A stretch of DNA of 64,000 nucleotides from Bilabrum cf. latius (lineage: Eukaryota): assembly GCA_965178125.1 (NCBI GenBank), contig OZ237763.1, positions 62,001-126,000 on the forward strand. The letters are read 5' to 3'. Of the stretch, positions 1 to 63,950 are shown piece by piece. The stretch's first letter is position 1. Every line of letters begins with the position of its first letter. Below the pieces are notes generated by a model, which saw only the letters and a list, made by a program, of their open reading frames with translations, was not told the origin of the DNA and made no database searches. A program made the position numbers and the translations under genes.

Positions 1-3000
1 GGTGCTCTTGCCCGACCCGGAAGGACCCACGAGCGCGGTCTGCTTCCCCGGGGGCATGTCCAGGGTCACCCCCTGCAGCACCCTGACCTCGGGTCTGGAG
101 GGATACGCGAAGGTCACGTCCACCAGACGGAAGTGCCCCTTGTATTCGCTATCCTCGGGCACGAAGCCGTCGTGCTGCCAGGGACCAGCGGCGGCGGCCT
201 TCTCCTTCCTGACCAGCTCCTTGGCGGCCTCGGACCCGCGACCCCACCCCTTCGAGTGCGGCATGTTGCGGCCCTTGGGTGTCCGGTCGATCAGGTAGAA
301 GATGCTCTCCTTGGCTGCCTCGGCCCGCCCCTGGTCGCCCAGGAAGGACGACGCCTGCCCGGCGCCCGTGGCGGCAAAGGCCAGGGCGAAGAAGCAGCGC
401 GTGATGCTGCAAAAAAGGGAGAGTCAAGAGAAAACAAGGAAGGATGGAACAGGTAGCTCGGGGTGGGTGGCAAACACAAGTACAAGAGAGGGGCTAGCAG
501 TGGGAAGTAGCCGGCGATCAGCTCACTCTTCGAATCCCCCGATCCATCCCTTGTCCAGGAACTGTGCCCCGGCCCAGAATGCGAGTGCGTAGAAGGAGAA
601 GATGACCAGCTGGTTGGCGCCCATGGCCAGCCCCCCCGTGAGCCCCTTCTTGATCCCGATGGCGGCCTGGCCCTCCAGCTTCTGCTCGAACAGCCGCTGG
701 ATGAAGCCCTGCATGCGGAAGGACTTGACGATTCGGATGGCGGTCATGGCCTCGGTGGCGACCTGGGTGGCAGATTCCACCCCCTCCCGGCCCGCGTCCT
801 CCAGCCCCAGCTAAGCCCGCATCTGCATCTGGCCCGTGATCATGATCAGCGGCACGACTCCGATGATGACGAGTGACAGCAGCCACGTGGCGGTGAAGGC
901 GATGATGAGGCCGGCCAAGAACGTGAACATGATCTGCAGCTGCGTGCCCAGCCTCTCCCCCGAGGTCAGCCGCACCAGTGTGGCGTCCATGGCCAGTCGT
1001 GCCACCAGCCGCCCGCTCGCGTTCTCCTCCCGGTCGAAGAAGGACACGTCCTGCTCCATGATGGCCACCATCGTGGCGGCTCGTAGCCTCGTGGTGAGCC
1101 TCGAGCCCACGTAGTCGAACATAGACACCTTGATGTAGTCGGCGATGGCCGCCCCGATGGCCAGGCCGGCGAACCCCAGGGCATAATTGCGCACCCCGGT
1201 CTCCAGCTGCGAGTCCACCGGGTTGTAGTACACCGTGATCATCTCAGTCAGGATGATGGCGTAGACTGCGGGAATGAGGGGAGAGAAGGGACGGGGAGTG
1301 GCAGCAAAGGAAATGAGGTGCAGGGGTGGGGGTGGGGGCAATTCGAATCCAGCGCGAGCCTACGGTGCATTGCAGTGCGGTGCTCATCGATCTCACCGGG
1401 GAACACGGAGCCCATGCACGCGGCCGCCACGACGCCCGTCCAGAATGCGCACTGCTCGTCCTTCTGGTACTCGAGTATGCGAGATAGGTTCACGGGCGCC
1501 CTCGATGCGGTGACGAGCATGAAGAGCAACTTGGCGTCTCCGCTGGTGGAGGGCAGCACCAGCGCGCCCTCGGTCACGGCGGGCCGCAGGTCCTCGTCCC
1601 TGGCCTTGCCTGCCTTGAGCCTCTGCAGCTTCTGCTCCGCCAGCTTGGCCGCGCTGGCCGTCTCTGCGTCCTTCTTGTCTTTGCCCTTGCCCTTTCCTTT
1701 GGGGGTGCTGCCCTCGGCCTCCGCGGCCGCTGCAGCGTCTGCCTCTTCCTCGCCCGCGGCCTCCCCCCCCCCACCGTCCTTCCTCTCCTTGGCCTCCATC
1801 TCGAGGGCGGCCTGCGCGCTGGCAGAGGCTGCCTTCATGTACTTGTCCCCACTGCGGGGATGAGCCAGGTAGAGCCCCTGGGGCAGCTTGCCCTGCACCG
1901 CGGCGCGCACCGCTGCCTGGAACCCCTCCGAGTCGGGAGCGGGGAAGGGCTCCTGGCCCACGGCCTGGGCCTTGAGCGGGTGGCACTCCAGACCCGTCCA
2001 CCACCGGACGAGGTTCTCCCTCTCCGAGTCGCACATCCTGGACGTGGACCTCCACAGCGCGTCCACCTCGGGGCTGTCCGCGGTCAGGTACACCTCCCCT
2101 GAGGACCCCTCCTCGTCCTCCCGCTCCTCCATGGGCGTCTCGCGGCCGTCCACAAAGGCAGGTGACTTGCTTCTCCTCCTCTCGGCGGCCTCGGCCGTCT
2201 CGCCCTCCGGGCCCGCGTACTGCACCATGCCCTTCAGCACCTCCAGCACCTTCTCTGCTGCACTGCCGTCAGGCTGCGCGGGCAGAGCACCATCCCCGTC
2301 ACTTGTCGGCCCCTGCGGCTCCGGCTGGCCCACGCTGAGGTCCAGACCCTGACCCGCGCCCCCCGAGGCGCTGTTTTCCTTAGTCTCCTGCTCCTCGCCG
2401 TCGGTGAGGAGCACCTGGCCGGAGCTGGCCCCTGCCCCTGCTCCCGCCGCCTCGCCCTCTTCCTCTGCCTCCTCCTCGCTGTTGTCCCCCGTCTTGCGCA
2501 GCCGCTGCTGGTCGTACAGCCGGCGGTACACGCCCGGCGCGTCCTCCGCGGGGTCCATGAGCTCGGCATGCGTGCCCGACTCGATCAGCCTGCCCCCGTC
2601 AAGCACCACGATGCGGTCGGCCCGGGTCACGGTGGACAGCCGATGCGCGATCACGAGGCAAGTGAGCCCCTGCTGGGTACCGCCTCCCGTCTGCTCCTTG
2701 TTCCCTGCAGCGGATCCCGCCTTGGTGTTCCCTGCGATGAGCTCGTCGATGGCGGCCTGCACCACCCTCTCGCTGTTGGTGTCCAGCGCGCTCGTGGCCT
2801 CGTCCAGGCACAGCACGGGGGCCTTGCGCATGAGCGCACGCGCGATGGACAGCCGCTGCCGCTGGCCCCCGCTCACCTGCCCGCCCCTCTCCCCCACCCT
2901 CGTGGCGAACCCGCGCCGCATGTCCTCCACGAACTCCCTCGCGTTGCCCTCGTGGGCCGCACCCCGGAGCCGCTCCACCACGGCACGCAGGCGATCGGGG

Positions 3001-5436
3001 AGGTCGGCCGTGGGGTCCCCCTCGGGGGCAGGGGACCGCGCCCGGGCCGCCCCGGCGCTAGCCCTCGAAGCAGACCTCAGCAACCTCCTCTGGTTGGCCT
3101 CCTGCGCCAGGGCGCCCACCACCCTCTGCATGTCGGCGTCGGAGGGACGCTCGTCGGCGCGCATGCCCATGAGGATGTTCTCACACACGGAGGAGGAAAA
3201 CAGAGCGCTGTCCTGGGACACCAGGGCCATTTGTTCCCTGAGCCAGGCCACGTCCAGCTCCTTGACGTCCCTCCCGTCCAGCAGCACCTTCCCCTCGTCT
3301 GGGTCGTAGAACCGCATGGCCAGCTGGATGATGGTGCTCTTGCCCGACCCGGAGGGACCCACCAGGGCCACGGTCTGCCCCGGCTCGATCTTCAGGTTGA
3401 AGCGCTTCAGCACCGGCACGTCGGGCCTCGAAGGGTACGCGAAGGTCACGTTGCGGAACTCAATGGCGCCGCGCGCGGGCTGGCCGGGGACGGCGCCGTT
3501 GGGCTTGTCGTCGTCGGGTCTCTCGATCTTGGGCTGCCTGTCGATGACTTGGAAGATCCTGTACGCCGCTGCCCGCGCCGACGCCAGCGTTCCCACCACG
3601 GGCGAGAAGTTACCGATGGCGAAGGACCCGATGAGAGCGGAGAAGAAGACCAGCAGCACGTCTCCGCCCGTGATGCAGTCTGCGGCGAACACGTCCGTCC
3701 TGCACTCGGGGTGGTCCTCCCTCGAGTCCACGATCAAGATGCCGCCCACGGCGCACCCCACGGCATACGCCCCGAAGATCCCGATCCACAGCCCTCCGAC
3801 GGCCATGGCAACGACAGAGGCGCCCGCCTGGCCGACCCTCTGCGCCAGGCCGATGTGCTTGGAGTACCTCGTCTGCTCCGCCACGTCACCGAGGAAGCCG
3901 TGCACGGTCCGGACCTGGGTGATGGCCTCCTGGGCGATGGACCCTCCGCGCGCATAGGCGTCCCCCTGCAGTCGAGTGAGCCTCTGCTTAGAGACCACGA
4001 GGAGACCCATGGGAATGGCCATCAGGGGCAGCATCGCGGTGATGGTCAGCGCCAGCACCCACGCCTTGGGGGTCACGGCGAAGGCCACGATATACCCGGT
4101 GAAGAAGGTCGCTGCGTGCATGGCCCCCTGACCGATTTTCTCCCCCAGCGCCTCGGCGATTCCCATGGTGTCCTCGGTGAGACGGCCCGCGACTTCTCCC
4201 GGCTCGTTCTGGTCGTACCACGCGACGTCTGCCCTCAGCTGAGCCCTGAGGTAGGCGGCCCGGATGCGCTGCAGCTGGTTGTCCTGGGCCACTGAGAGGG
4301 CGAGGTTCTGCGGGGTGAAAGGGGAGGGGCGAGGAAGTGGGGGAGGGCAACGGGGTGAATGCACATGAGAATGAAGATTGAATGCAGTACTAGGGTGTGT
4401 GCATCCGTGACAAAGATCCAGGGGGGGAGGGGGGGGGAGGGGGGGGGGGATGCGGCGCGCCTTTGTTGGGCGACATGCAACGGACGCACTGAGAAACTGC
4501 AGGTCGTTTGTTGAAAGAGGGCCCCGCCTGTCTCTCACTGAGATGGTCGCTGCTACGGCAGCTCCTACTCCCAGGTACACGAAGTTGACTGCTACCCCAC
4601 TGCGGCGGAATTGGGTTCGTAGAAACGAATTTGCCAAGCACGGTGCGAGTGTTCGTCGCGGCGTGGCGGGCGAAATGGCCCGCAACCCCGCAAAAAATGG
4701 TACAACAGGGCTGTGGAGGCAGTGAGAGCCGAATGCCAAGCCACAAGGCATGCACACACTGAATCCAAATTACATACGCATATGCTGGATCGATCAAAGC
4801 GTGAATCGAGGTGTGGAAGCCGTGACACGCAAAAGGAGTAGCCAATCCCCGCATTTTGCGTGCAGCTCGTTCAACTCACGCGATCTGATCCGTGAGGTCG
4901 TCCGCCTAGAATCCATCGAACAAATCTCTGCGTGAATATCAAATGGAAAGCTGGCACTGGGTGAGACAGAATCACAGCAGGGCGCTACTTCTTGGGAGAA
5001 TGCAGATGCCACGTCCAAGTTGGCTTCGGGATGGTTCCCCCACATGGCTGGTACCTCCAAGCATAGCGTCTCACCGAAATAGAACAGCGAACAATGGCAT
5101 CACCGCACCCTGAGCGCACGAGAACACAAGTCCAATCACGGTTAGAAAGACATCGCAGCTGGTAGCAAACCGCCAAAGCGCGAAGCAGCCGGTCTGCTGC
5201 TGCGATTCATCCTCCTCTCCGCCGGCAGATGCTTCGTCAGAACTCTTTTTATCGTTATTACTTGGGCAGAGGAGCCGATAGCACGATACCTGAGCTAGGA
5301 TGCGCTCTTCCTCGATTCGAATCTGCGCTTGTCGGTCTGCCTCTACTTCGCGACCAGACCTTGCTTCGGTCTTTGGACCATCAGCAGGAGTTACCTAAGC
5401 CTATGTTTCATTGGTTTTGCTGGCTACTGCAGCCAT
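1..5436 (-). CDS. ABCB: ABC transporter subfamily B (P-glycoprotein/MDR-like, full-length TMD-NBD-TMD-NBD), 3' end beyond window
   Basis: NBD1 Walker [10 protein letters not shown], signature VSGGQRQR, Walker [12 protein letters not shown]; the second Walker A lies at the window edge. Introns 407-526, 1266-1396, 4308-4538, 4600-4879 and 4928-5074 are GTGAG..GCAG and keep frame. ATG at 5436. In-frame TAG at 811, 4906, 5395, 5401. Confidence 0.93.
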
Positions 5437-5618: not shown

Positions 5619-7054
5619 ATGTCATCGTTTGCTGCTGAGCTGATTGCAACTGCTGTGAGTATTTAATTACACTGTAGAAGCAGAATATATGGTGTAAACT
5701 TCGTTTTTGTGGCGGAAACCACGTGCGAATACTCCATGTTCGGATCTAGTGTTTCTTGCGCGTCCGCTGCGCTGTGCAAGCTCCTGCGACTAGATCTTTG
5801 GTCTATGTACCCATTAATACATAAAATGGAATGATGTGGTCGTCTGACGGCCTGGGGTGCTCAGGGAGGCGATGTTGAGACGCAGATGCGCGGCAGATGG
5901 TCCACGATGTGTCGCGGTCGTGGCGCTGTCATGCGACCCTAGGGCCTTTGCAACATCGATCGCCTTCCATTCCCGTATATACGTGTGTAACCGTACCATT
6001 TGACCCGTTTGTATCGCAGAACGCCCTCGTGGCACCCGGCAAGGGCATCCTCGCGTCGGATGAGAGCACTGGCACCATTGGGAAGCGCTTCGCCCCCATC
6101 GGCGTGGAGAACACCGAGGACAACCGCCGCAAGTACCGCGAGCTGCTTTACTCCACCAAGGGCCTGGGCGAGTACATCAGCGGCGCCATCATGTTCGAGG
6201 AGACGCTCTTCCAGAACGCCGCCGACGGCACTCCGTTCGTGGACATGTGCAAGGCCCAGGGCATCATCCCCGGCATCAAGGTAGACAAGGGCGTGAAGCC
6301 TCTGGCAGGCACGGACGGCGAGACTGTCACTCAGGGCATCGACGGGCTGGGCGAGCGCTGCGCCAAGTACTACGCGCAGGGCGCCCGGTTCGCCAAGTGG
6401 CGCGGTGTGATCAAGATCACCGACTCGGGGGCCCCCTCCGAGCTCGCCATCGCGGAGAACACCTCCCGGCTAGCGCGCTATGCCTCCATCTGCCAGCAGA
6501 ACGGCCTGGTCCCCATCGTGGAGCCCGAGATCCTCATGGACGGCAAGCACTCGATCGAGCGCGCCGCCGCCGTCACCGAGAAGGTCCTCGTCGCGCAGTA
6601 CAAGGCCCTCTCGGACCACCACGTGCTCCTCGAGGGCACCCTGCTGAAGCCCAACATGGTGCGACCGGGTGCCGACTCCGGTGCCAAGACGGACCCCGTG
6701 GCTGTGGGCCGGTCCACCGTGCGGGTGCTGCAGCACGCGCTGCCCGTTGCCGTGCCCGGCGTGGTGTTCCTGTCGGGCGGCATGTCCGAGGAGGACGCCA
6801 CCGTGTGCCTGGACGCGATGAACAAGGTCGAGGCCAAGAAGCCGTGGAGCCTCACCTTTTCGTACGGGCGGGCCCTGCAGGCCTCGGTGCTCAAGGCGTG
6901 GGGAGGCAAGGACGAGAACATCAAGGCCGCGCAGGACGCGCTCACCGTGCGCGCCAAGGCCAATGGAGAGGCTTGCGAGGGCAAGTACGGCGGCGGTGCT
7001 GCTGCCGGAGGAGCCGCCTCCGAGAGCCTGCACGTGAGCGGGTACGTGTACTGA
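5619..7054 (+). CDS. FBA: Fructose-bisphosphate aldolase class I (cytosolic type)
   Basis: Exon 1 5619-5654 ([12 protein letters not shown]), intron 5655-6019, exon 2 with [27 protein letters not shown] (Schiff-base Lys), FSYGRALQ and C-terminal Tyr. Ends TGA; no internal TAG. Confidence 0.97.
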
Positions 7055-10400: not shown

Positions 10401-11633
10401 CTCTGGCCACTCGCCATCCTCAGGCAGCTTCACCAGCCCCATGGTGACCCACGGCGACTCACTCACGATGGGCGGTGCCAGAGGCGGCCTTCCCCGCTCC
10501 CTCCTGGCCCGTTGTTCCCCCGTCCTGTGCCTCACCCACACCGTGGCACCGAGGAAGAGCAGCACGTCCTCCGCAGTGAACATACCGTCCTCCGTGCGTG
10601 CCAGGTCCAGGACGGTGCGGAGGACCAGTCGGGCGGAGGGGGGCAGCATGGGCACCACCGTGCGATGCATCAGGGCGGCCACGCGGGTCCATCGGTCCAG
10701 GGCCGCAGCGGCGGCGGCGGCATCAGCATCTGTGGATGTGGCAACACCGGCCGCTGCGTCAGCGCTGGAGAGGGACGCGTGGGATTGCGCGGCGCCCCTC
10801 GGTGCGGAACTACCGTGGTACTTCCCAAGTTTGCCGGTCTGATCGTCCCAGGGCAAAGCGCTAATACTATCTTTGCTTTGCTGGCTGTTTGCACGCCGCT
10901 GAGGGCGATCTCTGGCGGCGCCGGGGCCAGCGGGTGGCTCTCCGCCAGATCCGCGCAGCTTGCGGTTGCCCTGATGACGATTGCTTATATTTGAAACTTT
11001 TCGATGCCTGGGGAGCCTTCCGGGGCCATCTGCTGGTGCCGGTGGTGCATGGTTCGCTGTGCCGCTTCGCGAGGTAGTCCAAGCATCCAACAGGCCTTTT
11101 CCGCGTTCCCCACGTCGCCAAGCCTCCCGAAGTTCTTGCACTGCATCTGAGATCCCGTGTGGATCGTGCAACCGCGGGACATGCTGGGGATGCTACTCCC
11201 TGCTGTCAGATGGCCGGCTAGTATAGATCTACCGCCTCCACCAACCCTTTCGAGCACGGCGTTCTGCGCATGTAAAACAGAAGGAAAGATTGATAATGTA
11301 AGGGTTGAATGCTGCATGCTTATTGCAGTTGCTTGCATGGGGCTAGCTGATGGTAAACGTGTCACTGGCAGTTCGTGAAGCACTGTGGCACTGCCAGTGG
11401 CAGACCGAATACTAGCATTCATCATCGAGTGGTTTAAGCTATATGCAAGGAAACTACTCACCGGAATGGCACTAGGACTTCAAATTGCCTCTAACAACAC
11501 CAAAACTAAATCTATGCAAGAAACGGCTACGGGTCAAAGGGCCTGAATACCTCGCAGCTACGCCTCTCCTTCTGACTGCTTCATGGAATCCCACACGTAA
11601 AAGCGAACTGGCGCTGTGTAATTGGGATGGCAT
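7443..11633 (-). CDS. Lipase class 3 / DAG-lipase-like alpha/beta hydrolase, about 1330 aa
   Basis: VVVIRG, GHSMGAG nucleophile elbow, DMVPRL and late MVADH. Track ORFs 9876-11171, 8859-9812, 8067-8681 and 7443-7892 are one frame joined across TAGs (8067, 8853, 8859, 9837, 9876, 11193, 11229). Putative intron 11264-11461 and Arg-rich first exon are less certain. Ends TGA. Confidence 0.8.
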
Positions 11634-19979: not shown

Positions 19980-22826
19980 TCACCCTTCTCCGTCAGCGGA
20001 CTTTCCCTCCACACCTGCACCACCACGCGATACACCCGACGGTGTGCCCAGTCCCGGCTCCAATCGTCGCCTAGCCCCAGACCCAGGCCCAGACCCAGAC
20101 CCGCCCTCCCCTGCCCCTGCCCCCCTGGGGCTGGCCCGGCTGCCACCCTCCTCCCCTCTGCTGGCACGCACCCCGCCGCTGCTGCCGCCACCAACACCCG
20201 TGGATTTGCCCCCCGATGCAGAGGCGAATTTCGCTGCAGACGCGCGGGCGCTCCTCTGTTGCCTCCTGAGCATCGACCTGCCCACGGGGGACATGAGCGG
20301 CCTCCTCGCCCACGACGGGGTCAGCGCGCCGCCCGGCCCCGCGGGTGACCCCACACCGGGGGTGGTCGCCCCCGCACCCCTCCGGGGCGTCCGTCCCGGC
20401 CCCCTGGTCGCATTGGCGAGGAAGGAACCCCTGTCCCCCTCCCCCGCTCCCACTCCCGCCCCCGCCCCGCCCGCGCCCAGGTGCAGCCTCTCCTGCATCC
20501 TCACCAGGCCCATGTTGTACATGCTGCTGCGGAGCACCTGCGCCTGCACCTGCGCTGACTTCAGCTGACCCTGCAGGGCCGCCTTCACGCTCATGTATCC
20601 CTGGCTGTGCGTAACCCTCTGCTTCTCAAGCTCCTGTCGGTGGCTGTCCACCAGCCTAGTCCTGGCCTCGTGGTTCCTCTTCATGGCGTCCCGCTGCTTC
20701 TCCATCACCCGCTTGGCCTCCGACAGCTGCTTCCCCAGCTGAGACAGCTGCTCCTTGAGCGAGGACTGGACCTCACCCGCGGCACGCAGCTGGGACCTGG
20801 TCTGGTGCGAGGCCTCTTCCGAGGCCTCCTCCGCGCGGCGCCGCAGGTTCCGCTCCCGCTCTGCCTCCGCCCTCGCCTCCTTCAGATCCACACGCAGCTT
20901 CTCTGCGTCACGAGCCGCCTCCTCGCTCGCCGCAGACCCCGCACTCGCCCCAATGGCAGATCCAGTCTCTTGCGCCGCAGACACCGCCGCGTCCGCCCTC
21001 GCCCTCGCCAGCTGCCTGCCTAGATCCGCCTGCGCGCCCTCTGCGGTCCTCAGCTGCCCCCTGAGCTTCCTCAGCTGCACCCTCAGCGACTCCACCGTGT
21101 CCTTCTCCTTCTCCTTATCTTCCTCGTCCTCGCCAGGCCCCGCCTTGACTGCCTCTTCCTCTCCCTCTTCCTCCACCTCCTGCTCGTCCTCCCCTGGCGC
21201 CTCCTTCCCCAGCCCGCCCGCGTCCAGAGCGCCCAGCCCCACTGACTCCCGCCTGCCCCGACCCACCCCCTCTCCCTCCCCCCCATCGCCTCCATCACCT
21301 CCTCTTCCCACCATCGCGGCCCTCTCCCTCATCGCCTTCGCCTCTGCCTCCGCCGCCCGCAGTCTCCTCTTCAAGCCCTCCCTCTCGTCCTCCTCCTGCT
21401 GCCTGCGAGCCCGAACCGCATCCTTCTGCTGCTCCAAGTCCGCGATCGTGGCCTTCGAGAGCGTCGCCGCCGCGGTGAGCTCCACGTTCTGGTCCCGCAG
21501 CTCCCGCAGCTCCTCCTGCAGCTCCCTCACGCCCGCCGTCTCGGCCTGCAGCGACGCCCGCTGCTCCCTCTCCTGCGCCAGGTCCTGCTTCGCCAGCCTG
21601 AGCTCCTTCCGCAGCTGCAGCTTCTGCTCCTGCAGCTTGCCCACCTGCTCCAGCTTGGCCTGCATGCCTGCCATGTCCCTAAGCCTCGACCGCGCCAGGT
21701 CCAGCTGGTCGTCGCGCGCCTGCAGCTGCTGCTCCAGCCCCCTGAGTTTCTCGGCGGCCTCCTCCCGCGCCTTGGACACCTCGCTCTCCTTCTTGGCCAG
21801 CTGTGCGCCGAGCTCCTCCGCGGCCCGCTTGTGAGCCTCGGCAGCGCGGCGGGCGGCCCGGAGCGCGGCGCCGGTTCCGCTGCCCCCATCCCCAGAGTCC
21901 GCGTCGGGCGCGCCCCTGAATCCCCCCGCCGCTTGTTCCCTGAGCCTGGCCTCCGCCTCCTCTCGGGCCGCCTCGGCCTCCCTGAGCCTGGCCTCCGTGG
22001 ACATGAGGCGAGCCCTCAGGCCACGGGCGCCCGAGCCGGCCGTGCTGCCGCCCTCCTCCTCCTCCTCCTCCTCGTCCTCCTCGTCCTCGTCCTCTTCTTC
22101 GTCCTCGTCTTCCTCGAAGCGCTCGATCACGTCCTGCACCAGGCCCATCATGGCCCCCTGCGCAGCCCGGTCCAGCCCCGCCATGGCCTGCAGGTAGCGG
22201 GAGCGGGAGGGGCACCGCTCGGCGGCAGCCACGCACATGCGGCACAGGCCAAGGAGATCGCCGCCGTCCTAATCGTCGTCACTGCCGCCTGCCGACGATC
22301 CTTTGTCCTTGCTAAGCAACGCTTCGCGCTCCAGCTCCGCGACGGCATCGTGGTCCAGGTGCAGCCCGTCCTCCAGGTAGGACTTGAGAGCGGCGACCAG
22401 GCGCTGCTGCCTGCCGGTGTTGCTCGGCTCCCCTTCCAGCAGAGCGGCTGGAAAGTGACTAGAAGATCTGTGCGCACATGTGAAGGCAAACAAGGTCGTA
22501 GAGTTGGCTCCGTGGGCAGCTTGACCAAAGATAGCAAAAAAGCTCTGGCAATCATTTCGAGGAGCCTCTCTCAGGAAGGTAGTCAAGGTACACGCTCACA
22601 TATTGGAAAGAAGTTGTAGCAGTGCATCCCCGTTCATTAGGTCACCTGGCCCATCTAACTTAGTGCTAACCTCGTCCAGGCTACTGAGCTGCAACCAGGT
22701 GGAGAGGCAATGCATGGCAGCAGATCTATGGTGGAAGCAGGCTCGCAGAGCAATGCAACGCACACAAATTGCTATACTTACCCATTTGGCAACAGAATTA
22801 ACGGATGATGCGGCATCAAGCGCCAT
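19980..22826 (-). CDS. Hook-domain (CH-like) coiled-coil protein, dynein adaptor family
   Basis: N-terminus VAKWLSSL..DLMNGDALLQLLSNI..F, then LLGLCRMCVAAAERCPSRSRYLQAMAGLDRAAQGAMM, then a long coiled coil. Introns 22689-22781 and 22468-22599. TAG at 22269. Ends TGA. Confidence 0.8.
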
Positions 22827-31935: not shown

Positions 31936-34900
31936 ATGGAGGAACCTGAAGCAGTTGTCAGGGCAATCAAGTAGTTTGTTGATGGTGTGGCGCCAAGTAC
32001 TGGGCATGATGGCTTGCGGTACGCCACTTTGCTCCTCGGATCTCAGATTGGCGGCGCTGCACCTGCAACGAAGGACTCCTCTGCGTACCTAGCGCACGAA
32101 TTAGATGTGTGCGCTGCCCGAGCTGGAGAAGCTATCGCATCGTGCGAGTAGTTTACCAGGGCTCGAAGATCTATTGAGCGTGCTAGCGAACGGGGATCTG
32201 CGCAGACACTAGGGTTAGCTCTTTTGAAAATGCGGGTCTCGGCGTTGGAACTAGTGACAGATATGTGCAGCCTATGCCTTCTAGCATAATCCAAAATGTT
32301 TGTATCGCGTATCTCTAATACTCCCTTTTCGCAGGTCTGTCGTACGGGTTCTCACCGAAGTGCACACGCGAGGTGCGGCCCAAGCGCTTGCGCTGACCGT
32401 CCCCACAGCACCCTCAGAGGAAGCTTCTGGTCCACAAACCGATCAAATTTCTGCAAGTACACCATTAGCTCCATCAAGTTCCTTTAATCGGCCCAAGGGC
32501 CGCGTAGCACTGGCCCGCGCGGCCGCCGCGGCCTCCCGAGGCGCCGCCACTGGCCCCGGGTCTCTCTTGCACTCGTCACGCGAGCGGCACCTCATCCCCA
32601 CCAGCGAGCAGGACCTGGTCCGAGCCCTCCTCATGGCGATGCAGGGTGTGACGAGCGAGCTGGTGGCCTGGGACGCGGGCCGCCGAGCCTTCGTGGTGAG
32701 CGAGGCACTGGCGCTGCCGGCCCCCGCCAGGCAGCTGGCCGCCAGGGTGTGCGAGGCGGGGTGGCTCTACCGGCGCGTGCGGAGGTGGTGTGACGAGTGC
32801 ACCGATCCAGCAATGGGGGCGGGGCCCGTGGAGCAGGCTCTCGGGGGGGCGGTCCGGGCCGAGCTGGACGCCTACCACCAGGCCCTGGGGGGCATGGGCG
32901 CGAGGGCCGTGCGGATTGTGACGAGTGGGTCGGCCGGTGGCGTGGGGGGCAAGGTGTCGGAGGCCACTGTGGGGGGCGTTGACTCTCCTGAGGCCCCCTT
33001 GTTCCCTGGGCTGACTCTCCGGCGGCTGGCGCTATGGGCCGCCGAGCCCGTCAGGCGGCTCTCGATCATCGCGCAGATGCTGGACGCGGCGGGCTCTCTG
33101 CGCGGGGCAGCGGCGGTGACGCAGGTGTGGAGATTCACGGGGCTGGGTGACCCCGTGCTGGCCGGGATTGCGGAACGTCTGGCGGTGCGCGGCGCCCGGC
33201 CAATCTTCGCGGCCATGCGCACGTGGGTGCGGGAGGGCCGTCTGGGCCAGGGAACAGCAGGATCCGGTGTGACGAGTGCGGACGGAGCCAGCGGGACGTT
33301 CTTCGTGCGGGTACGCCCGGGGATTCCGGCTGATAGGCTGTGGCAGGACAGATACAGGCTGGACGGCTGGCGCAGGCCGGGGTTCCTGGGCCGGGCCGAG
33401 TGCCGGCTCGTGTACCGGATCGGCAAGAATCTGAACTTTTTGCTCGAGTGCTGCGGAGACTAGGGCTGGGTGGCGGGCACGAGGGCTGGAGATGCTCCGC
33501 GGGGTGCTCTTGGGGGTGCAGGGGCAGGGGCAGGGGCAGGGGAGGGCGAGTCGTCGCTGGATGGCCAGGGTGAAGATGAAGAGTCATGGGCCCAGGCCGT
33601 GGATAGGGAAGAGCGGTTTCTGCTTCAATCAGGGAACAGCGGGTCGGAGTCGGGCGGGCATGTGCGTGCAGAAGCAGTCGGGTTCGGTGGGTATGGGGGC
33701 GGCAGCAGCAGCAGATCGGCGGGCGCAGCTGGTGAGATTGAGGGTGAGATGGCGCGGCAGGCGGCATCGCAGGCTATGCGAGAGGTAGGGACAGTTGGAG
33801 CACTTTCTGGTGCTGCACCTGCGCTTCCCGCCACCTCGCCGTACGGTGAGGGCAACAAGGAGGAGGAGGAGGATGAGGGGGAGGAGGATGATGGTGCCTC
33901 TGGTGCCGCGGCGGGCGGCCTGCCTCGGCTGCTGCGCCGACTGGCACGTCGCTCGGACACCCGCGTGCTCCGGCTGCTGTTCGGGCGGAACCGGCTCTGG
34001 TCCCACCTGGCAGCATGCCACCACTACCTGCTGCTCGCGCGGGCGGACTTCGTCACTGCACTGGTCCCTGCCCTTGAGCCCATCCTGGGGAGACCAGCCA
34101 CGGAGATCGGGCCCCACGTGCTGATCGCCGCCCTGGACGGTGCTCTCCGCTCCTCGAGCGCGGCCAGGGAACTGCCCCCCGAGTGCATCCAGCGGCTGTG
34201 CGTGCGACTGGAAAAGGCCCAACCGGGCGACACTGGCAGGGACATATTCGTGCTGGACTACCAGCCGCCACTAGCCCTCATGCCCGTGCTCTCCCACAGG
34301 CACTTGGCCGCCTACCGAAGGCTCTCGGGATTTCTGCTCCGAGTCCGTCGTGCGCGCTGGACGCTGACCGAGGACTGGAGCAGGCACGCGGGCACCGCGC
34401 GGAGCTTGCGGAACCGGCCAGAGCTACGGCAGGCGCTGCACGCGCTGCACCTCGCGCGGCAGGACATGGCCCTCTTCATGCACACCCTGGAGTCGTTCGC
34501 CACTCTCGAGGTGCTGGGAGGGGAGTGGAACCGCCTGAGGGACCGAGTGGCCGCTGCCAGGGCGCTGCCTGACGTGGTTGATGCGGTCGGGATGTACCTG
34601 CACGCGGCCATGGAGAGGCTTCTTCTGGCAGGGAGCAGGAAGAGGAGGAGACCCGCCCCCGCGCTGCAGGCGCTCATAGGGGAGTGCCTACGGTTCGCGG
34701 GTCTGTCTCAGAGGGTGCTTAGGAGGGCAGGGCGGGCGGAGGACGCGCTGGGGCAGGCCGAGCTGGACTGGAGGGAGGCCAGGGAACAAGAGGAGGATGC
34801 CAGGGAACAAGTTGCGCTGGGGGACGGGCCGGACGCGAGCCGCGAGGAGAGGCGGGCGGGCGAGGCGGCGCGGCAGCTCCTGGACAGGGCGCAAGCCAGA

Positions 34901-35170
34901 GTGCTCGCAGCCGAGGTGGAGAGAGACAAGGCCCAGAGGTCGCTGGAGGAGCTGGGGAAGAGCGCGCTCAAGGCGCTCGGAGGGGTAGTGGGCACGTACA
35001 GGCGTCACCTCATGGCTCTGCTGGCGGCGGTGCGCGCGGGAGGGGCGCGACTCCTAGAGTGGAGGGCGCTCACGGTGCAGTTCGACTTCAACGAATTCTA
35101 CGAGGGGAGGGCAAGGGCTGGGCTTGAAGGGACGGGGGCAGGGGCTGGCGCGGCTGTGGGGATGGCTTAA
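31936..35170 (+). CDS. GCP3: Gamma-tubulin complex component 3 (Spc98/GCP3)
   Basis: N-terminal LRYATLLLGS, EQDLVRALLMAMQG, VCEAGWLY, IGKNLNFL..CCGD, YLLLARADFV and C-terminal FDFNEFY. Intron 32214-32334. TAG at 31972, 32149, 33461. Ends TAA. Confidence 0.88.

Positions 35171-44413: not shown

Positions 44414-44415
<2 letters not shown>

Positions 44416-44448
<33 letters not shown>
44416..44448. repeat. (CTG)n tract, poly-Gln (CAG) on the minus strand
   Basis: Directly visible. Confidence 0.85.
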
Positions 44449-53200: not shown

Positions 53201-53555
53201 CCTTGAGAACGCGAGCTTTCTTGCAACAGTCCACACATACACCTAAAGTGAGGGGGTCGTCGACCCTGTACCATGTGTCTGCGAAAGCAATTTGTCGCCG
53301 ACCTTGGAAATGCACAAGAGAGTATCGGCTCGGCGGACTCTCCACGACATCTCATCGGCCACTAGAGCTCTCACCATTGTACATGAAACTAAGAGAGTCT
53401 TCATGTCCAGCGTGATATGTATTTGAGCCCATCGGAAGCGCAACCGAGGGTAGCCTTGTTTGCATCTGGTTCGTAATCGAACAGTCAGATGCTCCAGCAC
53501 CGCACCAAACGAACAGGCATGCTGAAACAACAGCCACGCGGCCAAGCCAGAGCAT
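47298..53555 (-). CDS. Giant (about 2060 aa) signal-peptide-bearing membrane protein of unknown function
   Basis: Signal-like MLWLGRVAVVSACLFVWCGAGA; intron 53303-53374. Six track ORFs are joined in one frame across TAG (50604, 49677, 49560, 49518, 48432, 48165, 48159, 47724, 47676). TM segments at about 49900-50370 and 47340-47590. Ends TGA TGA TAA. Confidence 0.7.
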
Positions 53556-54025
53556 AGGCAGAGGATTTTGGACCCCGATTCCGATTCATATACTAGAAAT
53601 AATGCGCTTCTTGCCAGCAAATCTTGATAAACCCGAATATCGTGCGGCCTCCGGCGCCGGCATCATGATGCACTGCATGATGGCGATCACCAATCACCAA
53701 TACAGAAATACATTGTTGGGACACCAATCACCACAACCATTGTTCGGTTATGCTTGACCTTAAATCAGATTTCAGATTTCAACCGAAGCGCACAAACAAA
53801 CCGAAGGGTGTGCAACGCGGACTGGGGTCATCTGGACAAAGGTAATAGCCATTATCTAAGGAGGGATACATTTACACGCGAAGAGATGGCCAGCACAGGC
53901 GGTTCAACAAGTTGGCTAGTGTTCCGCGGAGTAATTCAAGTACATTGCGCCCGGTGCCAGCTTGGAGGACAATGACCGATTCATTCGTTGGATAATTAGA
54001 TGACAACGCTAAGGAGGCAAATCTT

Positions 54026-57000: not shown

Positions 57001-57913
57001 GGAGCAGAGCATCGGCATCCGCCGCCCCTGCGGCACCGGCTGAGGAATGGTCCCTGGCCGCCGCCGCAGCCCCCTCGACGTATTTGCCCACCTCTTGTTC
57101 CCCGGCGTGCCCAGGCCCGCACAGCCTCGCTACCACCCTCGCGCAGTGCAGCCTCAAGTCCCCCCTCAGCGCGTGGTACAGCCCCGGCCCCATCCTCCGC
57201 TTGCACAGGTCCTCCGCGATGCTGTACAGCTCCTCCCTCGAGGCCGGGAATGGCTGCTCGTGCAGGATGCTCCACATGGCGGGCCGCAGCTGCGCCCAGC
57301 CCCGGCGTAACAACGAGCGCGCATCCGACTGTTCCGGTTTGGGGCGGCTGGCGTCCACCGTCACCTTTAAGCGAGCCCGGGACGAGGCAGAGGAGGAGGC
57401 GGAGGAGGACAAGCCGCCGCCGCCGCGACCCCCGCGGCCGCCCCTCCCGCCCCTCCCGCCGCGACCGCCCCTAGATGACCCTCGGCCCCGACCACCGCTT
57501 CGTGGGGTGCCTGCCCCGCCGGTGCTCTGCGAGCCGCCGCTTGACGATCGTCGAACGAGCATGAAACCGCTTGTCGGCAGGGCTTTCGACTTCTGTCCGA
57601 AAGCAGTGGTACCACTGCTCAGGCGAACGCGCACACCACTTTTTTTCCCTAGCCTCCGCTTTTTTTGGGGGGCTTGCCCTTGCTCCAGGTTCCGGAAGAA
57701 CCCTGATTCAGGCTGTCCAGGATCAGACGAGCGCGACGTGCCGCTGGATGAAGATGAGCTGGACGCCTGCCGCCCAGAGCTGGAACCCAAACGATTCGAT
57801 AGTCCTGTAGACTGGTGGCTATGCCCCGGGGCTGCTTCTGCCTGCGATTCTCGGGGCCGCTTCTGCCCGGGCGATTCGTGATTTGGAAGCCTGGGCGGGC
57901 CACTTGGATCCAT
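54026..57913 (-). CDS. CUL4: Cullin (CUL4-like)
   Basis: SREELYSIAEDLC, RNICLYLDR, KDVFEEYYKKDLSKRLLLGKS..KLKGECG, neddylation motif DACIVRVMKSRK, KKRIESLIDRDYMERD..YHYVA. TAG at 56381, 56264, 56222. Ends TGA. Confidence 0.9.
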
Positions 57914-58185
57914 GCAGCGATTTGCGCTGCCGAGCTGCCGCAATTTAATATTGCGTACAGACGACCCTAATGATAAACGCCGGGGCTCGCTCTCGCTTTT
58001 CCTGCTTATACTGCCACGTCGTCCGTCGAGAAGAAATCAGTCCGGCGCCTCAAAAGAGCACGTTTCAAATATTCAGACGCAAAAAAGCGAACAACCCTGC
58101 GTATTTCTGCAAAGGGAGCACCATGGCAACCAGTATTTATTGCAAAATGGAATAGCCGCGAATCGTTGCACGAATCTGTGGCTTC
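57914..58185. promoter_or_regulatory. Probable bidirectional promoter, CUL4/eIF3m
   Basis: About 270 bp AT-richer spacer between divergent ATGs. Confidence 0.45.
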
Positions 58186-60144
58186 ATGTCGGAAAGACTG
58201 TCGGGCAAGGTTCCCTACTCGGATGAAGACCTGAAAGAACTTATGGAGGAGAATGAGGTTTCCTCGATCGAGGCCCTCGAGGGCCTCTCGGATAGCATTG
58301 TAGATAGCAAGAGATTGGATTCTTATAGAGTAGATCTTCGGATGCGATCGAGCGCCGGAAGGAATGTTGCAGAGCTGGCAAAGGAGTTGCAGCAGCACCC
58401 CGAGATTATCACTGGAGCCGGCGACGCGGACACCGTCGACGGGTTCGTAGCGCTCTTGGTGCACGCATTTAGAGCACTTGGCGACAAAGAGCACAGGGAT
58501 GCGCTGGACTCTGTCTGCGGCGCGATCTGCGAAGTCGCAGAGTTCGAGCGGGAGCAGAGCGGCGGCGCGGTCGAGGTGGCTGCCTCTGAGCACCTCGGCC
58601 TCCGCGCCATCGTTGGAATCTACAACATGATTGAGGACAGGCCGCTCTCCAGACTCGCCGCGCTCACCCGCGCGATCGAGCTGGCCAGGGGCACCTCCCT
58701 GCTCTCCCCGCTCGTCCCGCTGCTCGCCCGCGCCGACGTGCTCGCCTCGAGCTGGAGCACCTGCTCGGCCGTAGGGCCCAAGGACAGGCGGGCCCTCATC
58801 CTCGCCGCCGCTGGTGCCCTCCAGCAGGACGGCAGGGCGGCCGCGGCCCAGGCCCTTCGCCTTCGGTGCCTCGCTGATTTCCAGCCGGCCTTGGCATTGT
58901 CCACTCCATCCTCCCAGGCCTCCTCGGGCGCGGGCGCTTCTTCTTCTTCTGCTGCTGCTGCCCCCGAGGACCCCTCCAGCCAGGAAGCGAGGGAAATTGC
59001 CGCTGCTGTGGCCCGGGCCGCCCTGACCTCGGCGATGCTGTTCGTGCGGTCGTCGCCCCTAAGCTTTGCTGCCGTGAGTTCTTTCCATCTTGGCAACTGC
59101 ATGCACGTCGTGCTGTTGAAATTTTGTCGTTTGCTTGTTTGCTTCTCTTGCTTGTGGTTGCTATGAAGTTTGGCGAGCTGTTGCAGCGGCAGGTGCACGT
59201 CCTCCCTCGCCGATGATACAACGACTTGCAGCGGGCACCTCTTTCGGGGGAGCCCCGCTGCATCTCTTCAAGTTCTAGTATCGGATGAGTCGGGTGCCCC
59301 ACCCTCGCCCCTGGGGACCACCTAGCGGTGGAGCCCCCGGTCGTGTGCTTGGAGGGCACTTTGCTTACATGAGACGAACGTATTTTCTCTCTGAGGCGAC
59401 GATGCACGGGGGCGTGTGCTGGAGTGCGTGCCTGCGGGGTTGTCTGGCATTGTCCGTAGCTTGGCGGTTGCCATCAGCATTTTTCCACGCCTTCTTTGGG
59501 CCCTGTCACCTTCACCACACCGCCCCATTCACCTCCCTCTCCTGATTCCGGTGTTTGTCCCATTCAATGTTCAATCGCAGGTGCGCAACCTTGAGGGCAC
59601 GGACCTTGGGCTGCTCGTGAGGCTGCTGCGGGTGCTGCGGACTGGGGGCCTGGCAGACCTTGAGGGGGTGGTCAAAGAAGCGGGCGGGGAGGACGCTCTG
59701 CAGGGCGTGGCGCAGGTGTCCGTTGAGTCGCTCAGGAGCACGCTGCGGGTGCTGCTGCTGAGCTCGCTGTGCCACAGGACGCTGGGAAAGCCTCTGGGCT
59801 TCGCTGCCGTGACTCGAGAGCTGGGGCTATCCCTGTCGGCGGGCGAGGGCAAGGAGTCGGATGAGGCTGGAGACGCCGAGGAGGAGGCGGAGGAGTGGGT
59901 GCTGGAGGCGGTGCGGCAGGGGCTGGTGGAGGCCCGCGTCGACGAGGTGGAGGGCACGGTCCGTGTGACGAGGGCGACTCCGCGGGCGCTCGGAGATTCG
60001 GAGCGGGAAAGCGCCCGGCGGGTGCTGCTGGCCATGCACTCGGCGGTGGGCGCCCTCGAGGAGTCTGCCTTCGCGGGCACGGGCCGGGAGGCAGCCCCCA
60101 CTGCTGCGGCTGCGGGGCCCAGGAAGCAGAAGGCGGGCAGGTGA
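58186..60144 (+). CDS. EIF3M: Translation initiation factor eIF3 subunit M (PCI domain)
   Basis: AVRNLEG..LLRVL..G, LRVLLLSSL, EEWVLEAVRQGLVEARVDEVEGTVRVTRATPRALG. Intron 59074-59580. Ends TGA. Confidence 0.8.
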
Positions 60145-60374
60145 TTCGGTGACCCCGTGTATGGCCCGTGTGGTTTCATTGGACTTACAGTGGTTAGGGG
60201 ATGGGGAACCTAGCAGTCCGGCTGTTATAGTAGTCTCAAAGAATCTAGCAATCGGGTTGTGTGGAGGCTTTGTGCTTTGCTTTGAGTGCTACTGCGGCAT
60301 CATCGCATGCCTCGAGCAGGTAGTCTTAATGGCCGTCACAAACACCCCTGCATGGAGCTGCGCTCATCCACTCT

Positions 60375-62198
60375 TCACAGCCTCACCATCCCCACCCCGT
60401 GCACCGTCACCACCACGGCCCTCGACCCCTCCACCTCCTCCACGTCGAACCGAGCCCCCAGCAGGCGCTCCAGCAGTGCCATGGCCGTGGTGGCGTGCAG
60501 GGACAGAGGGCCCGTCCGGAATCGCGTTTGACCACCGGCCAAAGCCGCGAAGATAAGCACCTGGTCCGCTGCGTGCTCGTCCAAGCAGGCTCCGCACAGG
60601 ATGTCTTGCTCCAGCTTGCGGGCGCATTCCTCCACGATGGACTCCACAGTGCCACCGCGCCCACCACCTCCCCTGCCACCTCCACCTCCCCTACCTCTAC
60701 CTCCACCTCCACCTCCACCTCTGCCCCTGCCTCTGCCACCCGTCCCTCTACCTCCTTTCCCGCCTCTTTTCCCACCTCCTCTCAGCTCCACGATGGTCTC
60801 CTGGCTCAGGACCCACCCGTCCTCGGTGCGGGCGCTGCATCGCACCACACACCCCGGGCTGAGCACACCTCGACCCACGTGCTCGTTGGTCGATTCCACA
60901 GGTACCCGATTGCCCCCTGGCCCGCCCGATTTGCCACCAGCACCCGCACCTGCCCCGGTACCTGCACCTCCCATTGCCACATCCCCAGCTTCAGCTTCAG
61001 CCCTGACTCCGTCCCCCCCACCACCATCACCACCACCATCACCAGCCTCCGTGTCGAACGCCATGCCCAGCTCCAATGCCCTGGTCCTCGCCAGCCGATG
61101 CATAGCATGCTCCGCAGCCTTGAGAACCGCCGCCGCGGTTTCCAAGGGGAACTTGCCTCCGTGTCTCACCGTCGCCTCCAGTCGAACCACTCGGCCGCGC
61201 CGGGTGGCCCCAATGAGGGGACGCAGGGCGACCCCGGGGTCCAGCGGCATGACCCTCAGCTGAAACTTGCCCCCACCGCGGGGGAAAAATCCGTGGGGGC
61301 CGAGCGACATCACGCAGCGAATGCCGAAGCGGTTCAGCAGCGGAGACAGCGTTCGCTCGAGGAACATGGAAGGGGGCGCGAAGGCTGCGTCTGTTCCTCC
61401 CGTCATGTTGAGCACTGCCATGGCTGGGTCGTCAAGCGGGCCCATCGCGAATATGTCTGTCTTGGCTGGAGCAAGCTTGCTTTCTGGCACACCACAATCA
61501 CGCTTGGCACTGCCAGTGGCAGGGGCTTCGGTGCTCATCGTGGCTGTGGGGGCGGCACTTGGCGCGGTGCTGCCGGTGGCAGCTGCAACACCAGTCGATG
61601 CCTCGCTTGGTAGCTTGCTTGCAGCAACAGCACCGCCCGTTGCAGCCCCGGCAGCAGATGCCGGTGCAAATGTACCGTCTCGCTTGCTTTCTGCAGCCCT
61701 TGGGCCTGGTAATCGGGCCGGTGGTACCAGCAGCTTCTCCGTTCTCGCTGAGCCCAGGTACAGAAGTGTCGGCAACACGAGCTGAGCAACAAGCGCAGTG
61801 GATCCAGCGGTCCCTATCTCTACATCCATGGATTGCCCTATATTTGGGGAGCAACCTGTGGCGTCCAGTTCCACCGTCATTGATTTCACATTCGTTCCAG
61901 TAGCTCGGGCTCCATGCAGTGTTGCCCCAGTCACAATTCCCTTGGAATGCTGGGCTCGAAGGCCGGGAGTCGATCGCTTTCCCCTTACATTAATTACCTT
62001 GCATGCACCGCGAGTGATCAGCGTGCAAGCCGACGTGATGCGCAGCACCTGCCCTCCGCCTTCTCCCTCGCTGCCGTCGACGACGACTGCGTGCGATGGT
62101 GCGGTCTCAGCGGCAGCTGCACCGCCACTGGCAGTGCTGGATGGGTCCATCGCGACAGCTCTTTTCTCCATTTTGGAAGTTACACGCTCTCTTTCCAT
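60375..62198 (-). CDS. RTCA: RNA 3'-terminal phosphate cyclase
   Basis: DGSEGEGGGQVLR, PGLRAQH, TAGSTALVAQ, GGTD, GFFPRGGG, catalytic LDEHAADQ, SLHATT. Ends TGA. Confidence 0.93.
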   Translation of the reverse strand: MERERVTSKMEKRAVAMDPSSTASGGAAAAETAPSHAVVVDGSEGEGGGQVLRITSACTLITRGACKVINVRGKRSTPGLRAQHSKGIVTGATLHGARATGTNVKSMTVELDATGCSPNIGQSMDVEIGTAGSTALVAQLVLPTLLYLGSARTEKLLVPPARLPGPRAAESKRDGTFAPASAAGAATGGAVAASKLPSEASTGVAAATGSTAPSAAPTATMSTEAPATGSAKRDCGVPESKLAPAKTDIFAMGPLDDPAMAVLNMTGGTDAAFAPPSMFLERTLSPLLNRFGIRCVMSLGPHGFFPRGGGKFQLRVMPLDPGVALRPLIGATRRGRVVRLEATVRHGGKFPLETAAAVLKAAEHAMHRLARTRALELGMAFDTEAGDGGGDGGGGDGVRAEAEAGDVAMGGAGTGAGAGAGGKSGGPGGNRVPVESTNEHVGRGVLSPGCVVRCSARTEDGWVLSQETIVELRGGGKRGGKGGRGTGGRGRGRGGGGGGGRGRGGGGGRGGGGRGGTVESIVEECARKLEQDILCGACLDEHAADQVLIFAALAGGQTRFRTGPLSLHATTAMALLERLLGARFDVEEVEGSRAVVVTVHGVGMVRL

Positions 62199-62419
62199 GG
62201 ATCTTGTCTACGCACGAAGGGAAGCAACACATCGGCAACTCGAGCGAGCCAGACCGGAAGCGTGCACCAACCGCAAAGCACCAGCGAACGCCCAGTGCGT
62301 AAATCACAGTCTCCGTTTTCGTTCAATCACCAACGCGCTTCCTCCAGGCACACACCCCGGGGCGCGCACGCAAGCCAACCGCCCACTGCCACTGGCAAGC
62401 GGCACGATCCCGCCCTCCC

Positions 62420-63950
62420 TCATTCGTGCTTGCCTGCCCCCGCTCGGCGGTACGACTCCCCAGGGGTGAACGCCTCGATCCCAGTGATGCCCCGGCCCAG
62501 GATGAGCGCGTGCACATCCGCCGTCCCCTCGTAGGTCACCACGGCCTCCAGCCCCACCGCGTGCCGGATCACGCCGTACTCGTCACTCACCCCGTTCCCG
62601 CCCAGCATGTCACGGGCCTCCCTCGCGATGGCAAGGGCCTACACCGTGTTGTTCCTCTTCACCAGGCTGATCATCTCAGGGGGGCAACCCTCGGGCACAC
62701 CGTTGGCCAGCCCTTGTTCCTTGACCCGGGCCACCTGCACGGCCCCCAGTAGACCGAGGGAGATGTCCGTGGCCATGTCTGCCAGCTTCTTCTGCACCAT
62801 CTGGTTGGAGGCCAGCGGGGCACCGAACTGCTGCCGGTCCAGGGTGTACTGCCTTGCGGTGTCGTAGCAGTACTCGGCGGCGCCCATGGCACCAAAGGCG
62901 ATCCCCAGCCGGGCCGAGTTGAGGCAGGAGAAGGGGGCCTTGAGCCCCTCCGCGAGGGGCAGTTGGTTGGCCTGGGGCACCCTGCAGTCGTCCAGGAAAA
63001 TCATGCCGGTGGGAGAGGCGCGCAGGGCCACCTTGCCCTCGATCTTCGGAGTGTCGAACCCGGGAGTCCCCCGCTCCACGATGAACCCCCTGACTTTCCC
63101 GTCGGCCGTGTCCCGCGCCCAGATGATCGCGATGTCCGCGATGGGGCTCGAGGTGATCCAGTTCTTGGCCCCGGTCAGTGACCAGCTGCCGTCCGGCTGC
63201 TTGGTGGCTCTGGTCTCCATGCCCGCGGGGTCTGAGCCGTGGTTGGGCTCGGTGAGGCCGAAGCAGCCTACAAGCTCGCCCGAGGCGAGGCGGGGCAAGT
63301 ACTGCGAGGGAGAGGTGATGACGTGTGATGTGGGGCGTGCGTTGGGAGGTGGGGGTGCGATCAGCGAGCGTTTCGGGCAATGACCTGCCGTGAGAGACTA
63401 GCAACTAATCATTGTAATTGTTCTAGTCGAGCCTTTGCCATGGTGCGAGCCACAGTGTGAGGCCACGCAGGCGACTTCACCTGGGCAGCTGGCCGCCAAG
63501 AAAACGCCTCACCTTCTCCTTTTGCTCATCAGATCCAAACTTGTAGATGGGGTGCATCACCAAAGATGATTGCACGCTCATGGCGGATCGGTACGCACTG
63601 TCCACGCGCTCAACTTCTCGGGCAATGAGGCCGTATGCCACGGTGCTCACGCCGGAACAGCCGTAGCCTTCGATCGTGGGGCCAAGGAGGCCCAGTTCCC
63701 CCATCTCGCGGAATATCTCGCGGTCAAACGTCTCATTTCGGAAATTATCGGTCACTCTCGGCATCAACTTTGCCTGAGCATATGAGCGGGCGCTATCCAT
63801 CACTAGTTTCTCTTCTTCTGTGAGCAACGATGCCATGCCAAGCGGGTCAGACGGGTCAAATCGAGCTAGAGATGCCATCGATCGACGGCCAACATGTTTT
63901 AATGCCCGACGAGAGGCATAGCCAAGCTTTTCCCCGATCGTTCGCAGCAT
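62420..63950 (-). CDS. GCDH: Glutaryl-CoA dehydrogenase, mitochondrial
   Basis: Presequence, [42 protein letters not shown](TAG)[29 protein letters not shown]. Intron 63302-63512. TAG at 62639. Ends TGA. Confidence 0.95.

Follow-up and report, generated by a model that had tools for sequence, protein, structure and literature searches.

A probable UAG-to-glutamine reassignment in nuclear genes of a GC-rich, bicosoecid-like stramenopile

Gene content of the window

We analysed a 64-kb stretch of DNA, positions 62,001 to 126,000 of contig OZ237763.1 (assembly GCA_965178125.1), which we call the window; all positions given below are counted from its first letter. The subject of the analysis is the meaning of the triplet TAG in the nuclear genes found there. 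Family and structure-alignment matches place at least 17 eukaryotic genes on the two strands of the window, which has a guanine plus cytosine (GC) content of 60-68% throughout (the figure quoted for the genome is 63%), and at least 10 of these about 17 genes carry TAG in frame. The genes, including open reading frames (ORFs), to which we refer are as follows.

1-4769, minus strand: ABCB transporter
5879-7054, plus strand: class I aldolase, whose last residue matches the final position (349 of 349) of the Pfam Glycolytic model, with no TAG in 347 codons and a TGA end
7443-11696, minus strand: lipase_3 protein
13384-19062, minus strand: ankyrin protein
19980-22595, minus strand: long coiled-coil protein
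23636-24634, plus strand: exon of casein kinase 1 (CK1), with no TAG, which served for placing the organism
about 25.0-27.5 kb and 27.9-29.9 kb, minus strand: two tandem MAPK genes, copy 1 and copy 2
32258-35170, plus strand: GCP3
35339-41167, minus strand: paralog A, an ankyrin-repeat protein of ~1,900 amino acids with Ank repeats and 18 in-frame TAGs
40792-47026, minus strand: paralog B, in tandem with A and also of ~1,900 amino acids, in the two frames 45020-47026 and 40792-45408, with 17 in-frame TAGs
47298-53351, minus strand: ORF of 2,017 codons, no Pfam family
54026-58036, minus strand: CUL4
58109-60649, plus strand: PCI-domain gene
60375-62303, minus strand: RNA 3'-phosphate cyclase
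62420-63902, minus strand: GCDH

In-frame TAG triplets in conserved genes

An initial annotation, made from the letters alone, had proposed that UAG is a sense codon here and had named five in-frame TAGs, in ABCB, the coiled-coil protein, GCP3, CUL4 and GCDH. Each of the five lies in frame at the place given for it. Together with the TAG of MAPK copy 1 and two further TAGs of CUL4, they are located as follows.

811..813, minus strand: ABCB, in the exon 526-1251 of the second transmembrane domain (TMD2)
22269..22271, minus strand: coiled-coil protein, in an acidic loop
26618..26620, minus strand: MAPK copy 1, in the kinase exon
33461..33463, plus strand: GCP3, in the N-terminal domain (Pfam GCP_N_terminal over residues 121-410)
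56381-56383, 56264-56266 and 56222-56224, minus strand: the three TAGs of CUL4
62639..62641, minus strand: GCDH, upstream of the C-terminal catalytic region

Considering the ABCB, MAPK, GCP3 and GCDH sites, we saw that homology continues through the TAG with no gap. The PDB alignment of the ABCB exon to Arabidopsis ABCB1 and ABCB19 is ungapped, with M and L (TMD2) and L and L (TMD1) opposite the TAG; the TAG of MAPK copy 1 is aligned, again ungapped, to plant and human MAPKs, which have Q in AtMPK6 and R in AtMPK4 and ERK5. The ungapped alignment of GCP3 to vertebrate GCP3 puts Q opposite the TAG in all three PDB GCP3 chains. The alignment of GCDH to human GCDH (E 1e-108) is ungapped at the TAG and runs 60 residues further, to the end of the fold.

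The claim that homology resumes directly after each TAG stood for these four genes; the CUL4 and coiled-coil examples proved weaker than claimed. The CUL4 TAGs, which had been assigned to a conserved domain, all lie in a diverged insert with no aligned column. This insert separates two collinear blocks of human CUL4A that are found in one frame (query residues 161-234 correspond to 104-173 and residues 399-473 to 223-296), and the three sites are unaligned in 34, 33 and 34 of 41 homologs. As to the coiled-coil protein, the ‘Hook domain’ that had been seen around 22269 corresponds to no Pfam family, and the match to Hook3 has an E-value of only about 0.9; the Hook identity of the protein at 19980-22595 was dropped as unproven.

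Paralogs A and B offer a comparison of another kind. Differences between the two are mostly at third codon positions; the ratio of nonsynonymous to synonymous substitution rates (dN/dS) is 0.54 over 402 codons and 0.49 over 1,163 codons (1,565 codons in total). With dN/dS of ~0.5, the TAG-containing frame is therefore under purifying selection.

Ankyrin repeats are the only recognisable feature of the paralogs. Stretches of several hundred residues are near-identical between A and B while others are strongly diverged, and a conserved C-terminal block of ~75 residues belongs to no known family.

Census of in-frame stop triplets

The number of in-frame TAGs had been put at about 80, in agreement with the 76 that we counted in eleven long stop-to-stop ORFs (12, 13, 18, 10, 7, 9, 3, 2, 1, 0 and 1 per ORF). 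Some of the 76 are probably in untranslated 5' leaders; in the lipase ORF, 7 of the 12 TAGs fall within the first ~170 codons, which are not protein-like. ORF length alone is no proof of a sense UAG, because reading TGA as sense also lengthens ORFs in GC-rich DNA: there are 273 ORFs of at least 150 amino acids with TGA as sense (the longest of 1,589) and 197 with TAG as sense (the longest of 2,017). We therefore limited the count to 19 segments, 8,506 codons altogether, whose coding status had support from a Pfam or PDB alignment or from conservation between the paralogs.

In these supported codons the in-frame stop triplets were 34 TAG, 0 TAA and 0 TGA, in segments whose parent ORFs had been picked as free of TAA and TGA. 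Read in the two remaining frames, these segments contained 106 TAG, 32 TAA and 276 TGA, the share of TAG being 106 of 414 (26%); if in-frame stop triplets were drawn like the off-frame ones, the probability that all 34 would be TAG is 7.6e-21. TAA is rare in the DNA of the window, and the absence of in-frame TAA would be weak evidence if taken alone.

Seven of the 34 supported TAGs are in conserved single genes (ABCB 1, MAPK 1, GCP3 1, CUL4 3, GCDH 1), the remaining 27 being within the ankyrin paralog pair. Supported parts with no TAG are those of aldolase (347 codons), CK1 (273), the first transmembrane and nucleotide-binding domains of ABCB (TMD1+NBD1, 571) and the cyclase (553). TAG makes up ~10% of the sum of CAG, CAA and TAG in supported coding parts; it is missing from the most conserved genes and frequent in fast-evolving lineage-specific genes, and many TAGs lie within low-complexity regions. 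These most conserved genes are probably highly expressed. No context rule was seen in the base following TAG (G 29, C 16, A 12, T 10), a tally in which several segments were out of frame and which was not relied on.

Gene ends

The 16 gene ends that we determined, in ORFs delimited by TAA or TGA and thus with TAG terminators excluded by construction, consist of 14 TGA and 2 TAA, the latter in GCP3 and paralog B. Two ends are anchored by family models, that of aldolase (349/349) and that of CUL4 (63/63), and in each the model is directly followed by TGA. The ends of GCP3 and CUL4 are located as follows.

35168..35170, plus strand: GCP3 terminator, TAA
54026..54028, minus strand: CUL4 terminator, TGA, directly past Cullin_Nedd8, which is matched to 63/63

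Both UAA and UGA are therefore kept as terminators, being seen at these gene ends and nowhere in frame within the 8,506 supported codons.

Stop triplets also accumulate past some of the ends. At 47289-47300 the TGA of the 2,017-codon ORF stands directly before another TGA and a TAA, forming a tandem stop, and both MAPK copies have extra stop triplets close 3' of their TGA.

Transcripts and independent reads

More than half of the words sampled from 54001-63900 occur in each of eight public runs, which come from four studies; four of these runs (X1, X5, X6 and X7) were compared with the window. Two introns of this region are skipped in contigs of X6 and X7.

63302..63512, minus strand: GCDH intron, 211 nt, GT..AG, missing from one X6 contig and one X7 contig, each of which has 255 letters on either side
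59074..59580, plus strand: intron of the PCI-domain gene, 507 nt, GT..AG, skipped in X6 and X7

The skipped interval 63302-63512 is exactly the GCDH intron predicted from homology. The two intron-less GCDH contigs cover 62330-63301 and 62446-63301 with no other letters; since they include the GCDH TAG unchanged, the TAG at 62639-62641 is present in the spliced product, in contigs from two studies. In X1 and X5 both introns are retained, and the same TAGs appear. The third TAG of CUL4 (56222-56224) is likewise covered by contigs of X6 and X7 with no other letters, and no letter difference to the window was reported in any of the four runs, which come from four studies. Among the runs listed for 54001-63900, none is on record as RNA; we infer that X6 and X7 are RNA because of the two intron-less contigs, which have no counterpart in X1 and X5. 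Editing, splicing-out or assembly error is thus unlikely at the GCDH TAG and at the third TAG of CUL4.

One part of CUL4 stands out in read depth. In each of the four runs, the depth summed over contigs at 56311-56640 exceeds that of adjacent bins 40- to 100-fold, and many loose contig ends are found at 56474-56507, in an acidic repeat of GAC/GAG type. This excess is due to a repeat common to many other loci and is not a feature of CUL4.

Amino acid at UAG in close relatives and copies

The closest ortholog available for a TAG site is P0282, a GCP3 protein called on a 5,329-nt Logan contig, which is 94% identical to the window's GCP3 over 331 residues. It has Q opposite the GCP3 TAG itself, flanked by 48 identical residues on the N-terminal side and 13 on the C-terminal side. 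P0282 (aligned to window positions 32567-33592) starts with M where the window has L, as expected of a bacterial-type gene caller that treats TAG as a stop; the Q of P0282 should therefore be a real CAG or CAA. The called protein ends directly ahead of a position at which the window has CAG (Q); a TAG in the relative at that position would explain this end. The start and the end together suggest that public bacterial-type gene calls cut the genes of this lineage at TAG.

The tandem MAPK genes give a second close comparison. Copy 2 has CAG at 29188-29190 opposite the TAG of copy 1; the kinase exons differ at 5 positions in 319 nt, and the other four differences are synonymous (CGG/AGG, CCG/CCA, TCC/TCG and CGG/CGA).

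Outside the kinase exon the two copies differ in a repeat. The last exon of copy 1 contains, at 25156-25649, 82 copies of a 6-nt unit that encode an Ala-Gly run of ~160 residues, and copy 2 has 16 copies at the equivalent place (28058-28155), a large size difference for very recent tandem duplicates.

At 18 sites a TAG of one ankyrin paralog faces another codon in the other, and at 5 of them this codon is CAG; at one further site both paralogs have TAG. Among the seven partners that are one base away from TAG, five are CAG, one is GAG and one is TAC, with none of AAG, TTG, TCG and TGG; other partners include CGG, AGG and AAA (twice), while L and S are found at one site of 18 each. In close copies, TAG and CAG are seen to exchange for one another.

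Placement of the organism and known variant codes

The CK1 exon matches proteins at 93-99% identity; the best named one is from Cafeteria roenbergensis (92%), and oomycetes follow at about 75%. No close named relative was found for GCDH (among longer proteins), CUL4 and GCP3, for which identities reach at most 64%, 45% and 39%, respectively, apart from P0282. With Cafeteria at 92% and oomycetes next in CK1, the organism appears to be a bicosoecid-like stramenopile.

Codes of the table 6 type, with UAR reassigned to Gln, are known in ciliates, Ulvophyceae and Hexamita. Their use of UAA as a sense codon was not seen here: no TAA is in frame in the supported codons, and TAA ends GCP3 and paralog B. 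The code named after Blepharisma is NCBI table 15. Blepharisma, as well as Protocruzia tuzeti and two phyllopharyngean lineages (PMC11687900 for Protocruzia and the phyllopharyngeans), has the codon table that we propose for the window, with UAG alone reassigned to Gln; ‘Genetic code 15’ is described as TAG to Gln in PMC9523058. These ciliates are set apart from the window by its CK1, which is 92% identical to that of Cafeteria.

Cases in which only UAG was reassigned are few. The relevant passages of PMC11687900 name Iotanema (Gln), a rhizarian (Leu), the green alga Scotinosphaera (Ser), and Protocruzia and phyllopharyngean ciliates (Gln or Leu); the initial annotation had listed Iotanema, the rhizarian and some ciliates, and had missed Scotinosphaera, Protocruzia and the phyllopharyngeans. 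A close parallel is Iotanema spirale (Fornicata), in whose non-ciliate nuclear genome UAG alone is reassigned to Gln and UAA is a stop, as described in passages of PMC5304391 and PMC11687900. Iotanema belongs to Metamonada, however, while the window comes from a stramenopile with 63% GC, GT..AG introns and TGA as the main terminator. Rhizaria sp. exLh (Leu) and Scotinosphaera (Ser) share with the window the uncoupling of UAG from UAA in a non-ciliate nuclear genome (PMC11687900, same passages) but differ in the residue: of the 18 paralog sites, one has L and one has S opposite TAG, and Q is found in the near ortholog. An assignment to Leu or Ser thus does not fit the window, the L/M column of ABCB being the only hint for Leu.

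The nearest named organisms, C. roenbergensis and C. burkhardae, have GC-rich, intron-poor genomes, with about 70% GC and 1.7-1.9 introns per gene; the passages of the genome report on genetic codes name a non-standard code for the mitochondrion only (UGA = Trp) and none for the nucleus (PMC6972860). Finally, Amoebophrya sp. ex Karlodinium veneficum resembles the window in having in-frame stops in essential transcribed genes and GT/AG introns, and differs in that all three stops occur in frame, with contextual meaning, in an AT-rich genome (PMC12005148, in the sections on its code); in the window only TAG is found in frame. On account of its AT-richness and its three in-frame stops, this Amoebophrya was rejected as a source of the window.

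Interpretation

In our interpretation the window belongs to the nuclear genome of a bicosoecid-like stramenopile with GC-rich DNA; UAG is an ordinary sense codon there, most likely for Gln, and translation is terminated by UGA (mostly) and UAA; we put the probability of this interpretation at roughly 80%. That UAG is a sense codon in nuclear genes, as the initial annotation had claimed, is strongly supported by the alignments, the spliced contigs and the census. Given a sense UAG, glutamine is the probable residue; this part of the claim agrees with the closest comparisons (P0282, MAPK copy 2 and the paralogs) and not with the distant columns (K/R in GCDH, L/M in ABCB). Gln would then have TAG as a third and rare codon. 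As in other lineages in which UAG means Gln, TAG may be read by a tRNA-Gln with anticodon CUA, with an eRF1 that would be blind to UAG. One could speculate on the history: a GC-rich genome that ended its genes almost only at TGA may have left TAG nearly unused and open to capture.

A number of observations weigh against this interpretation. Among 120 homologs of GCDH (the search took longer proteins and left out GCDHs of ordinary length, including any from a close relative) the column of the TAG has K in 66, R in 49, other residues in 5 and Q in none. The ABCB column is M or L in the four alignments shown, the MAPK column is R in two of the three distinct proteins shown, and the GCP3 column varies among 150 representatives (A 19, T 16, S 13, Q 9, R 8, lower counts of other residues, 46 unaligned); these four are the usable distant columns. 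When likelihoods were computed from the substitution counts of the paralog pair itself, they came to -58.3 for K, -61.6 for Q and -54.6 for background over the 18 sites, and to -16.9 for Q and -17.5 for K over the 7 well-flanked sites; they do not discriminate between Q and K. Among single mutations TAG to CAG is the most common, and part of the excess of CAG partners could be mutational. ARAGORN found no tRNA gene in the 64-kb window, and no Rfam family was found there at gathering scores; the eRF1 gene is not among the genes of the window. The RNA label of X6 and X7 is only an automated guess, with X6 labelled ‘probably DNA’. Lastly, ORFs bounded by TAA and TGA are no proof that termination at TAG never occurs.

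UAG could be a sense codon for Lys, Arg, Leu or Glu, or could be read by several near-cognate tRNAs with no dedicated tRNA, release being lost. Such a reading would account for K or R in 115 of the 120 GCDH homologs, for L/M in ABCB, for the paralog partners CGG, AGG and AAA (twice), and for likelihoods in which K is level with Q and background is best over the 18 sites. However, the closest comparisons, P0282 and MAPK copy 2, all have Q or CAG, and no AAG, TTG or TCG partner is found at the 18 sites. Ordinary Q codons of the GCDH exon provide a baseline: 6 of 10 are in columns with Q under 10%, one of them in a column with K 85 and R 9, another in a column with M 62 and L 36. Columns of the K/R and L/M kind therefore do not speak against Q, and we regard a residue other than Gln as unlikely. 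A dual UAG, which codes for a residue within a gene and for a stop close to the end of the transcript (the situation in Condylostoma, karyorelicts and Amoebophrya sp. ex Karlodinium veneficum), appears somewhat less likely still. Codes of this kind exist (passages of bioRxiv 10.1101/2022.04.12.488043 and PMC12005148), and a TAG terminator would not be revealed by ORFs delimited as ours were; but the family-anchored aldolase and CUL4 end at TGA directly past the last family position. In addition, an ambiguous code would have all its stops both in frame and terminating, as the Condylostoma, karyorelict and Amoebophrya codes do (the last in an AT-rich genome), while the supported codons contain no in-frame TGA or TAA.

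A further explanation would be the standard code, the TAGs being pseudogene nonsense, assembly errors, missed introns, RNA-edited sites or cases of low-level readthrough. The TAG/CAG difference between recent MAPK duplicates does resemble a fresh nonsense mutation, and many TAGs are in low-complexity regions. Yet all 34 in-frame stop triplets are TAG; the single-copy GCDH carries a TAG and is spliced with letters unchanged; the letters are identical in four runs of four studies; dN/dS of the paralogs is about 0.5; all four other MAPK differences are synonymous; and the alignments of GCDH, ABCB, GCP3 and MAPK are ungapped at the TAGs. We consider the standard code very improbable.

The preferred code, UAG alone to Gln, is itself known; the lineage is new. 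An independent origin, which the initial annotation had suggested, fits the placement of the CK1 exon beside that of Cafeteria, a stramenopile. A search of the full-text literature, which did not extend to supplementary taxon tables and most subscription journals, brought up no paper describing an altered nuclear code for bicosoecids or other stramenopiles. The chances seem to us evenly balanced that UAG was captured by Gln independently and recently inside Bicosoecida, making this the first non-standard nuclear code in stramenopiles and one in a free-living organism with a GC-rich, TGA-terminating genome. If so, close relatives such as Cafeteria would bracket the switch, and the order in which TAG stops were lost, the tRNA changed and eRF1 changed could be read from living species. 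As nuclear codes that split UAG from UAA are few, a bicosoecid case would add a lineage at supergroup level and would test the idea that GC-rich genomes ending genes almost only at TGA free TAG for capture.

There are practical consequences as well. A gene caller that assumes the standard code will cut short or break up a large part of the genes of this organism. The public call of P0282, from a relative, begins within its gene and ends before the gene does. For proteomes, phylogenomic matrices and metagenome bins in which this lineage is included, TAG has to be translated as Gln.

Other ORFs of the window

A small ORF on the plus strand at 12568-13119, whose GC content at third codon positions (GC3) is 0.79, gave a weak SRP_SPB-like match that does not reach the Pfam cut-off (E 0.001); its listed reading contains three TAGs, none within the matched part. 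In the 2,017-codon ORF at 47298-53351, the N-terminal half is rich in Cys and Asn, and hydrophobic segments are found in the middle and at the end. The ORF contains nine TAGs, eight of them in a low-complexity region downstream of the N-terminal half.

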